Positions 35,994 through 62,645 are shown, counted from the first letter of the stretch. The stretch: 64,000 bases of DNA from Pirellulales bacterium (GCA_963733035.1 CAVTBU010000005.1:2400001-2464000), one strand, 5' to 3'. Translations and numbers: made by a program. The notes: a model not told the origin generated them from the letters alone.

Positions 35994-36004
35994 ACCCCGC
36001 ATAG

Positions 36005-36212
36005 CGTGCGTTGGTGGTCGGCGTTTGCCTCTGAAACGTCGACAAAACAGGGAACTCCGGTGCAATTCCGGGACGGCCCCGCCGCTGTAACCGAGTGCTT
36101 AAGGAAGCTGTTTCTTAGCCATTGTTGAGCTGGCCGAAGTCGCAAGACTTTGCCCGCGTGCAACGAGAAGGCCAGTCTTCCCCAGCTCGGGAGTCAGAAG
36201 ACCTACCAACGC
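36005..36212 (+). promoter_or_regulatory. Cobalamin (B12) riboswitch
   Basis: Hallmarks AACAGGGAACTCCGGTGCAATTCCGG, CCCCGCCGCTGTAA, AGCCATTG...GAGAAGGC and the B12 box GAGTCAGAAGACCTACC. Confidence 0.95.
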
Positions 36213-36392
36213 TTGACTGACGGAAGTTTTCGCGAGGGACGAGAGCTTTCGACCGTTCGTAGGCCTCAATTAGGACGCCGCTAATCGTCGGCTTGTGCCT
36301 TGTAACCCAACGCGGTTTGGCCGTCTGACCGTACGCGCTTGCGCGCATCTGTCCGCCGTCCCCGCTCGTTGCCGTTGGCATGCGCCACGACG

Positions 36393-47131: not shown

Positions 47132-49671
<2,540 letters not shown>

Positions 49672-60442: not shown

Positions 60443-61711
60443 ATGAATTTTATTCTCGAAGAAGACCCCGAGGTCTGGACTGCCATTGCCGAGGAAATTG
60501 ATCGGCAGCAGGACGGCCTGGAAATGATCGCCAGCGAAAACTACACGAGCCCCGCCGTAATGCAGGCCGTGGGCAGCGTGCTGACGAATAAATATGCCGA
60601 GGGCTATCCGGGCCGCCGCTATTACGGCGGTTGCGAGCACGTCGACGTGATCGAAAATCTGGCGCGTGACAGGGCCAAGAAGCTGTTCGGTGCCGAACAC
60701 GCCAACGTGCAACCCCACTCGGGCAGCCAGGCGAACTTTGCCGTCTACATGACCGCCCTCCAGCCCGGCGACACCGTGCTGGGGCTCGATCTGGCACACG
60801 GCGGCCACCTGACGCACGGAATGAAGCTGAACATCTCGGGCATCCTCTATCACTTCGTTAGTTACGGCGTGAAGTCGGACGACCATCGCATCGACTTCGA
60901 CCAGGTGGCCCGGCTGGCCCGCGAGCACAAACCGAAAATGATCGTGGCCGGCGCCAGTGCTTACCCGCGCGAGATTCCCCACGGCAAGTTTGCCGAGATT
61001 GCTCGCGAAGTTGGCGCCAAGCTATTCGTCGACATGGCACACTACGCGGGCCTGGTCGCCGCCGGACTGCATGACAACCCGGTGCCCGTGGCCGACTTTG
61101 TCACCACCACCACGCACAAAACGCTCCGCGGACCTCGCGCCGGTTTGTCGATGTGCAAGGCCGAGTACGCCAAGGATCTCGATCGTTCCGTCTTTCCGGG
61201 TATCCAGGGCGGGCCGCTGATGCACGTGATTGCCGGCAAGGCAATTTGTTTCGGCGAGGCTCTGCGCCCCGACTTCAAACAATACGGGCAGGCGATCATC
61301 GACAATGCCAAGACGCTGGCCGAAGAGCTGATGGCCGGCGGCCTGCGACTCGTCAGCGACGGCACCGACAACCATCTCTTGCTGATCGACGTCACCGCCG
61401 TCGGTTTGGGCGGCAAGCAGGCCGAAGCCGTGCTCGACACCGTGGGAATTACCGTCAATAAGAACATGATTCCCTACGACGAGCGCAAACCAATGGACCC
61501 CTCGGGCATTCGTGTCGGCACACCGGCGCTCACCACGCGCGGCATGGGGCCCGACGAAATGAAGAAAATTGCCGGCTGGATGTTCGCGGCGCTCAAGTCT
61601 CCAGACGACGCAAAGTTGCACACCGAGATTCGCGGAGACGTGTTCGACCTGTGCGAGAGCTTTCCCGTGCCCGCCGCGCGGCTGTCCGAGGTCGATGCCG
61701 ACGAAGTCTGA
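60443..61711 (+). CDS. glyA: Serine hydroxymethyltransferase
   Basis: [28 protein letters not shown] and [11 protein letters not shown] motifs. Confidence 0.98.
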
Positions 61712-61887
61712 GCGCATCGGCGCTACGTTGGCCGATAGGCCTCCAAGGGCTGCGCGACCAGCGACCGCCCCCTGGGCGCCGGTGGCACTGCGCCCCAGGC
61801 AGGCTCGATCGCTTGACCGCAACATAAACGCAGCGGTCTTCTCCGGATAGGAAGGCCGCGACTACGCCGGACGGATTTGACGCGTTT

Positions 61888-61902
61888 TGGCATAAGGCTT
61901 GC
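61888..61902 (+). promoter_or_regulatory. Candidate sigma54 (-24/-12) promoter
   Basis: TGGCATAAGGCTTGC fits TGGCAC-N5-TTGC with exact GG-N10-GC spacing. Confidence 0.6.
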
Positions 61903-61913
61903 CCATCGTACAC

Positions 61914-62064
61914 ATTCGCAAGGGCAGCACTTCTGCCGGCCAAAGAGTGGTTCTTTACCTGTCGTCCGTCGTACTGCGATGCGATCGGATGTGGGAAGAA
62001 AAGCACTTCTTGGAAACTTCGGTTCGTTCGAATCGAAGCAGAGGTGGCTGTCCTTGCGTTTTTT
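61914..62064 (+). ncRNA. Candidate ~150-nt structured small RNA
   Basis: The 5' and 3' ends pair over about 20 bp and enclose a long imperfect hairpin and a side hairpin. It ends in T6 and starts at the predicted sigma54 +1. Confidence 0.55.
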
Positions 62065-62186
62065 CTTGCGCCGCCAGCATGGCATCCGCGCGCTTGCGAA
62101 CTCCCATTCTCCCGGCACGCCGCGAGCCCTATAATCGGACAGTTGAACTTGCAGCTTGAAGTTGATCTGTCAGCCACGGAAGTGCC

Positions 62187-62645
62187 ATGCCTGAAACGTC
62201 CCCCAAGAGCCGGATCCTGATTGCCGACGACAACGGTCCCAACGTCGAACTGCTGGAGGCGTATCTCAGCGGGCTCGACGTCGAGGTGGCCGTGGCCGTC
62301 GACGGGCGGGATACCTTGGAAAAGGTCGCCTCTTTTCAGCCCGATCTGATCCTGCTCGACGTGATGATGCCAAAGCTCAGCGGCTTCGAGGTCTGCGAGA
62401 AACTGAAGTCCGACCCCGCGACCAGCGGCATTATGATTCTGATGGTCACGGCGCTAAACGAACTGGGTGACATCGAGCGGGCCGTGGAAGTTGGCACCGA
62501 CGATTTCCTGAGCAAGCCGGTCAACAAGCTCGAACTGCTCAAGCGCGTGGAGAACATGCTCAAGCTGCACCATGTAACCGACGAAGTGGAACGGCTGCGC
62601 CAGTACATCGCCCAGATGGAAGACGCCACGGGTCCGAGGTGCTAG
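62187..62645 (+). CDS. Single-domain response regulator (receiver plus short coiled coil)
   Basis: ILIADD, DLILLDVMMP and DDFLSKP motifs. Confidence 0.93.
   Translation: MPETSPKSRILIADDNGPNVELLEAYLSGLDVEVAVAVDGRDTLEKVASFQPDLILLDVMMPKLSGFEVCEKLKSDPATSGIMILMVTALNELGDIERAVEVGTDDFLSKPVNKLELLKRVENMLKLHHVTDEVERLRQYIAQMEDATGPRC

Follow-up and report, generated by a model that had tools for sequence, protein, structure and literature searches.

A conserved Y-shaped RNA element behind a sigma54-type promoter box, between glyA and a receiver-domain regulator gene in one family of Pirellulales, is a candidate small-RNA gene

What occupies the 475-nt spacer between glyA and a response regulator gene of a Pirellulales bacterium, where a sigma54-type box stands in front of a stretch of DNA that is almost fully self-complementary? 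The spacer is part of the 64,000-nt stretch of DNA analysed here (hereafter the window; GCA_963733035.1 CAVTBU010000005.1:2400001-2464000, genome G000). A first-pass annotation, prepared from the sequence alone, had read positions 61888-62064 as an unannotated small RNA with a three-way junction, loosely reminiscent of 6S RNA, or else as a leader or attenuator of the downstream regulator. Comparative analysis points most likely to a new, family-restricted and sigma54-dependent small-RNA gene, the element itself being real, conserved and structured. The features on which the argument turns are the following.

60443..61711, + strand: glyA (serine hydroxymethyltransferase), an open reading frame with a Pfam SHMT match (E 5.9e-162); upstream flank
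61888..61902, + strand: sigma54-type promoter TGGCATaaggcTTGC, TGGCAT-N5-TTGC (-24 GG / -12 GC), composed of TGGCAT (61888-61893), N5, aaggc (61894-61898), and TTGC (61899-61902)
61914..62064, + strand: predicted small-RNA transcript of ~151 nt, with +1 placed from the -12 element and the 3' end from the U tract
61917..61936, + strand: 5' strand of helix P1, CGCAAGGGCAGCACTTCTGC, opening with the conserved GCAAGGRC
61940..62013, + strand: P2 in the predicted fold, a long 74-nt arm with small internal loops and a UGCG-containing cap loop
62014..62017, + strand: junction J2/3 in the predicted fold, A-rich, 4 nt (AAAC)
62018..62037, + strand: P3 in the predicted fold, a short 20-nt hairpin, CUUCGGUU/AAUCGAAG
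62038-62058, + strand: 3' strand of P1, GCAGAGGTGGCTGTCCTTGCG, ending in GUCCUUGC
62059-62064, + strand: T6 (U6 in the RNA), which with the P1 3' strand forms a terminator-like 3' end
62103..62135, + strand: the regulator's own promoter-like element, CCCATTCTCC-N17-TATAAT (TATAAT at 62130-62135), a conserved block
62187..62645, + strand: stand-alone receiver-domain response regulator, 152 aa, with a Pfam Response_reg match only; downstream flank

The regulator is a bare receiver in which Pfam finds neither an AAA+ nor a DNA-binding part, and it has one ortholog in 31 of the 33 genomes of its family, at 70-93% amino acid identity. A family-2 glycosyltransferase gene follows it.

The first-pass annotation had placed TGGCATaaggcTTGC, both P1 strands and the T6 tract correctly to the base, and all of the helices that it listed are present in the RNAfold structure of 61914-62064(+). 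P1 comprises 20 pairs and one bulge (61917-61936 with 62038-62058), while the helices of P2 include CCAAAGAGUG/CACUUCUUGG, CGUCCG/CGGAUG and UCGUA/UGCGA. The minimum free energy of this structure is -73.0 kcal/mol, compared with -45.4 +/- 3.9 for dinucleotide shuffles (z -7.1; 0/200 as stable), and the minimum free energy and centroid structures are identical. The sequence and the fold described for this locus are therefore confirmed as real. The G-U pairs had also been taken to favour a plus-strand RNA, an expectation that holds at the locus itself, where the reverse strand folds to only -48.7 kcal/mol (z -3.6), and less uniformly across the homologues described below, of which just 9 of 12 have the plus strand as the more stable one. 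The promoter and the U tract are therefore better guides to the strand than folding energy is.

Sigma54 promoters follow the consensus TGGCAC-N5-TTGC, with GG at -24 and GC at -12. If the GC element has its C at -12, the predicted start lies at about 61914, where it had been expected. The genome encodes a single copy of rpoN (PF04552, 1 match, 214 bits) and contains 19 matches to the sigma54-activator AAA+ domain PF00158, 11 of them near full length. A lone box nevertheless proves little, since many are expected by chance: GGCAY-N5-TTGC occurs 221 times in the genome, versus 124 times for the reversed control. The argument for a promoter thus rests on conservation and a fixed register. A (T/C)GGCA(C/T)-N5-TTGC box is present in 14/14 homologues at a fixed 13-16 nt 5' of P1, and it is kept although the surrounding sequence diverges; if transcription begins 12 nt past the GC element, the 5' overhang would measure 1-5 nt.

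A site for an activator was sought further upstream. The best enhancer k-mers shared across 11 upstream regions were not above shuffles, and a comparison with the regions upstream of the genome's 220 further GGCAY-N5-TTGC boxes showed no enrichment (388 matches vs 401 for the control). Just 5' of the box, GGAAGGCCGCGACTA (61850-61864) has an exact 15-nt inverted copy 2.7 kb downstream (G000:C5:2464557-2464571), which sits ~195 nt before another GGCAC-N5-TTGC box; this pair was rejected as an activator site because it is not conserved in relatives, and it is probably a chance occurrence. A palindrome around GTGGCAC (~61780-61805) was set aside as well, being conserved only between G000 and G002/G003.

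How widely the element occurs was established with several kinds of search. The 191-nt stretch occurs once in the 6.6-Mb genome, and a BLAST-type DNA search of 61 relatives recovered only two genomes, both of the same genus, with 72% identity over the 3' half and the order glyA, element, regulator retained in each. In an alignment of the spacers, conservation peaks at the GGCA...TTGC box, the RNA, and the blocks TTCCCATTCTCC and CCTATAAT. A covariance model built from three sequences (R1) found 7 of the 33 family genomes, and each of its four new matches carries a sigma54-type box ~14-16 nt before P1 begins and a U run after it ends. Five further carriers missed by R1 were later revealed by synteny, through the upstream regions of the regulator, whose protein served as an anchor. 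The recurring module can be described as a (T/C)GGCA(C/T)-N5-TTGC box, a spacer of 13-16 nt, an RNA of 131-152 nt and a U tract.

A composite pattern (box, N12-18, RCRAGG, N108-136, CCTYGYNTTT), with the reversed pattern as control, matched 12 of 401 Pirellulales genomes, once in each, while the control matched none. All 12 carriers belong to a single Pirellulales family, f1 (12/33 genomes including G000), distributed over genera g1 (4/4), g3 (6/10), g4 (1/3) and g12 (1/1), and in every one of them the RNA lies between glyA and the regulator. A scan of 185,579 species genomes with the composite pattern returned 64 loci, including 11 syntenic ones, all from this family; the remaining 53, scattered over unrelated phyla, are taken as chance matches. 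A metagenome collection gave 97 loci, two of them syntenic. Homologues between glyA and the regulator, the place in which the first-pass annotation had suggested looking, were thereby found in 12 of the 33 family genomes and on two metagenome contigs, which together make up the set of 14 sequences used below. A second covariance model built from 12 sequences (R2), run over 151 genomes of the order, recovered only the family carriers and one 31-nt hairpin in G120. A shorter pattern, the box plus RCRAGGRC, was abandoned as too loose (89/401 genomes, many reversed-control matches, and 0/30 fetched loci syntenic). As far as these searches extend, the RNA family appears confined to one family of Pirellulales. 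The first-pass annotation had also feared a dispersed, MITE-like palindromic repeat, which can be dismissed given one copy per carrier, always in the spacer between glyA and the regulator.

The pattern of substitutions indicates that the fold is maintained by selection. In a MAFFT alignment of 12 sequences, the 22 pairs of P1 and P3 show 81.6% of cells paired versus 74.3% in shuffled alignments, with compensatory changes in 11/22 pairs (score 0.308 vs 0.189, reached by 0/500 shuffles), and sliding the partner strand by 1-3 columns lowers pairing to 33-49%. Fitting all 14 sequences to the model, an alignment that is biased towards structure because it is structure-fitted, gives 83.9% vs 76.2% paired and 33 compensatory cells vs 13.4 (0/500). 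Compensatory changes fall in 9 of the 18 P1 pairs and in P3 too, so that both helices covary beyond shuffles (0/500), as the first-pass annotation had anticipated for a genuine RNA. Within genus g1, RNAalifold on five sequences yields 43 pairs, 11 of which are compensatory, some of these in P2 and P3.

Between genera the sequence of P2 can no longer be aligned, and the architecture is retained all the same. When each sequence was refolded on its own, 12 of 14 gave a P1 of 15-20 bp with two branches, the first 64-82 nt long and the second 10-22 nt; the exceptions to this Y fold are G032, an unbranched rod, and G014, which has three branches. A U tail of 5-9 residues follows P1 in 14/14, and the nine homologues from outside g1 have fold z scores of -3.8 to -7.1. 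Invariant letters are found only in the P1 strands (5' GCAAGGRC, 3' GYCCUUGC). The arms are capped mostly by stable small loops (UGCG, GAAA, UUCG and similar), and the unpaired stretches of the homologues are short and predominantly A-rich, with loops and junctions that vary; no conserved unpaired sequence that would hint at a seed, target or partner was found among the 14 sequences. Compensatory change, together with an architecture kept despite an unalignable P2, argues for selection on the RNA fold. With promoter, spacing, architecture and U tract all kept in 14 sequences, and with covariation in addition, the unannotated plus-strand small RNA with a three-way junction that had been proposed stands as a well-founded prediction. 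A small protein gene was considered and rejected, as the open reading frames closed within the transcript encode 0-35 aa and are unrelated among the 14 sequences.

These observations also bear on whether the element is a structural or genomic by-product, such as a terminator or insulator of glyA or the remnant of a palindromic insertion, next to a sigma54-like box that is fortuitous or non-productive. The spacer is indeed variable, the element is present in some members of g3 and g4 and absent from others, G023 carries an unrelated inverted repeat at the same site, and the genome-wide counts of 221 against 124 imply that many such boxes are chance occurrences. A by-product would not, however, be expected to combine a box held in register in 14/14 sequences amid diverged surroundings with compensatory changes and a persistent architecture, nor to occur once per genome and nowhere else; in addition, neither a target-site duplication nor terminal repeats beyond P1 accompany it. 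We therefore regard this explanation as improbable.

A comparison of filled and empty sites underlies the last of these points: it revealed no target-site duplication and no terminal repeats beyond P1. In 15 family genomes glyA adjoins the regulator without the RNA, across spacers of 22-353 nt, and the RNA is thus dispensable or labile. Carriers and non-carriers are intermixed, both states occurring within genera g3 and g4, and carrier G006 has as its sister G024, whose site is empty (support 99/97). We conclude that the module is accessory and that it was lost or gained repeatedly. A glyA plus regulator tree, with 25 rows for 31 loci, is poorly resolved (6/22 branches well supported) and shows only that presence is patchy; it omits L053, L068, L069 and L070 (glyA not adjacent, or not enough DNA) as well as L075 and L076 (fragmented glyA matches). 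The repeat in the G023 spacer (L054) is a perfect inverted repeat of ~25 bp (ccacactaacccgacgcgccagcgaggg...), and the glyA-regulator spacer seems prone to insertions.

Is the RNA a gene in its own right, or does the sigma54 promoter serve the regulator? All carriers have a CCATT(C/T)TC-N17-TATAAT block 3' of the U tract, ~50-60 nt before the regulator start codon, and the same promoter-like block directly follows glyA in the 15 RNA-less genomes. Because the regulator keeps its own promoter with and without the RNA, it can do without the module. The sigma54 box stands at a variable distance from the regulator start (290-464 nt), which, taken together with that promoter, favours a separate transcription unit over a leader.

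The leader or attenuator offered as an alternative by the first-pass annotation is for this reason the weaker reading. It would have the sigma54 promoter drive the regulator, and the glycosyltransferase gene behind it, with the Y RNA as a 5' leader whose P1 and U tract act as a conditional terminator, opened if the 5' strand of P1 were held during ~130 nt of transcription. Its appeal lies in the arrangement, the RNA being directly upstream of the regulator and in the same orientation in 14/14 sequences, and in a non-canonical terminator that might leak. CheY-like receivers are, moreover, enriched among the sigma54 targets predicted for Planctomycetia in the accessible part of an in-silico survey (PMC12316311). 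Set against this are the CCATTCTC-N17-TATAAT block 3' of the U tract, kept in the 15 RNA-less genomes, and the inconstant distance between box and regulator start. Nor are the junction and loop nucleotides conserved, unlike those of leaders that sense a ligand or protein, and there is no evident antiterminator pairing, the 5' overhang being only ~1-5 nt. Invariance limited to the P1 strands, and a regulator that exists without the RNA in 15 genomes, likewise do not fit a riboswitch or other sensing leader. We consider a role as leader unlikely. Pairing of GCACUUC, which occurs twice in the RNA, with the ribosome-binding region of the regulator in G000 was examined and discarded, since it is absent in G003.

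On this evidence the locus is probably an independent, enhancer-dependent (sigma54) small-RNA gene. Conservation of the regulator's block itself, CCCATTCTCC-N17-TATAAT, across genera exceeds what an ordinary -35/-10 pair would call for, and the block lacks a TTGACA-like -35. The combination of CATTCTC with an exact TATAAT is unique in the genome, where CATTCTC alone occurs 665 times versus 124 for its reverse. In G012 (L068), which is without the RNA, cGGCACcagcgTTGC abuts the regulator TATAAT, 101 nt before the regulator start, possibly as a direct sigma54 input or by chance.

The 3' end resembles an intrinsic terminator in part. In all 14 sequences a G+C-rich stem, P1, is followed by U5-9, but the simple short loop (3-8 nt) of such terminators is replaced by ~100 nt and two branches. 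A simple terminator scanner reported 0 terminators in 61600-62300, and misses P1 and the U tract because the stem encloses so much sequence. Given this non-canonical form, partial read-through into the regulator gene is possible.

Does the RNA belong to a known family? A search of 61600-62300 against Rfam 15, on both strands at E<=10, gave nothing credible; SMAD5-AS1_3, Cyano-2 (minus strand, 16.8 bits vs a gathering score of 40) and v-snoRNA-1 are chance matches at that threshold. No family, 6S included, matches the RNA, in agreement with its description as unannotated. The whole window contains only one match at gathering score, a cobalamin riboswitch (RF00174) at 35995-36224 (+), 86.9 bits. 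The Rhodopirellula-1 motif (Weinberg et al. 2010) appears in the accessible part of its source without an Rfam number and so lies outside this negative result (PMC2864571).

The loose resemblance to 6S RNA noted at first does not withstand comparison. An RNA polymerase-binding 6S-like RNA, or a CsrA-sequestering RNA of the CsrB/RsmZ type, would be compatible with the rod-like overall shape and the paired ends, and RF00013 finds no 6S RNA in G000 or its genus. The fold, however, has no central bubble and no RF00013 similarity at E<=10, and carriers G027, G028 and G032 have RF00013 matches in addition to the RNA. For CsrA, the genome offers 14 paralogues and no detectable Hfq, yet GGA motifs number 39 in the 14 RNAs versus 37.3 expected, and only 4/39 are mostly unpaired. 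Identity with either type is very improbable. Across the family, RF00013 matches 11 of 33 genomes and none in g1 (G000-G003), where 6S RNA either has diverged beyond the reach of the model or is absent.

How might such a gene work? An active enhancer-binding protein would allow sigma54-RNA polymerase to start at ~61914, a few bases before P1, and the nascent RNA would fold P2 first and then P3. The 3' strand of P1 would next pair with the 5' end and, with the U tract, end transcription ~40 nt before the regulator's promoter. The product would be a compact, Y-shaped RNA of ~150 nt that acts in trans; with both ends locked in a ~20-bp helix, it is probably stable. Conservation is seen in architecture, in the base of P1, in the U tail, in stable loops and in A-rich junctions, but in no single-stranded seed, which suggests recognition by shape. 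From these comparisons we think that the RNA is a protein-binding or decoy RNA rather than a conserved antisense RNA, with base pairing through lineage-specific loops as the second option. An Hfq-dependent base-pairing small RNA was rejected, as no Hfq gene was found (no PF17209 match in the 92%-complete genome) and no single-stranded seed is conserved.

Small RNAs dependent on sigma54 are well known in Proteobacteria, and the principle is not new. GlmY folds into three stem-loops in a row and serves as a decoy for RapZ; its activator gene is adjacent and the activator sites are defined. The accessible part of one source describes this RNA of Enterobacteriaceae as having a sigma54 promoter and GlrR as activator (PMC3045617). 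The Y RNA would likewise come from a stand-alone sigma54 small-RNA gene with a structured product and its own, here predicted, terminator, and the mode of action of GlmY, protein binding without a seed, is the one proposed here. It differs from GlmY in having no sequence or Rfam similarity, in a Y closed by its own ends, and in that neither activator nor enhancer was found at this locus.

The Qrr RNAs depend on Hfq and on a highly conserved single-stranded seed; they are small, end in an intrinsic terminator, and their activator is phosphorylated. These Vibrio RNAs use sigma54 with LuxO according to the accessible parts of two sources (PMC10162802, PMC3730234). The resemblance lies in a small enhancer-dependent gene with a terminator (here predicted), and the difference in the lack of a detected Hfq gene and of any conserved unpaired stretch in the Y RNA. 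CrcZ of Pseudomonas and Pxr of Myxococcus have sigma54-type promoters and lie beside NtrC-like regulator genes, and CrcZ sequesters a protein through A-rich motifs. Our candidate also neighbours a two-component gene and, like CrcZ, has A-rich unpaired stretches; unlike either, its neighbour is a bare receiver, it shares no sequence similarity with them, and it is much smaller than CrcZ. With 6S RNA it shares a length of ~150-190 nt, paired 5' and 3' ends and an extended shape, but it is branched, lacks the central bubble and an RF00013 match, and coexists with 6S matches.

A genome scan for sigma54 boxes with a strongly folding stretch and then a T run behind them gave further RNA candidates. 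At G000:C7:549226-549380 (+) (L261 527-680), the box TGGCATTCCGCTTGC precedes a structured RNA of ~135 nt whose 3' domain combines a closing helix, two arms, one long and one short, and a U tail, and which is conserved in 22/33 family genomes at 81-93% identity. At G000:C6:370496-370690 (+) (L262 497-690), TGGCACGGTGATTGC precedes a structured RNA of ~175 nt with a terminator, and the 3' ~90 nt share 91-98% identity in 29/33 family genomes, unusually high for non-coding DNA. For each of the two, an upstream sigma54 box was present in 11/11 relatives' loci examined; neither has an Rfam match. At G000:C5:2178052 (+) (L263), the ~80 nt behind TGGCATCGACTTTGC end in a strong hairpin and U5.

The Y RNA and the two other conserved loci suggest that enhancer-binding proteins of these bacteria commonly act through small RNAs. 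A more specific picture is possible but tentative: at least three structured sigma54 small RNAs in a family without detectable Hfq and with 14 CsrA paralogues, among which the Y RNA would be a protein-binding or decoy RNA recognised by shape, its closing helix serving as terminator. Regulatory RNAs are almost unexplored in Planctomycetota, and we found no paper on a sigma54-dependent or other characterised small RNA in this phylum. In surveys based on promoter scans, boxes of this kind may be credited to the protein gene that follows, in this case a CheY-like receiver. In the accessible part of the 2025 sigma54 survey, CsrA and CheY-like receivers are among the predicted targets in Planctomycetia and small RNAs have 0 occurrences (PMC12316311). 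The locus offers a precisely delimited candidate, with a box, a start predicted to within a few bases, a covarying Y fold and an end at a U tract, and the RNA-less relatives provide natural 'knock-outs'. If the more specific picture of several such RNAs is true, sigma54 would control a post-transcriptional layer that has so far gone undescribed in Planctomycetota, and the repeated gain or loss at a single spacer would be the sign of an accessory regulatory module in which close relatives differ.

Elsewhere in the window, a further sigma54-type box, cGGCACgccgaTTGCA (48740-48785, +), lies ~28 nt 5' of a GAGGA ribosome-binding site and a frame with a GTG start, an arrangement that probably represents a sigma54-dependent protein gene.
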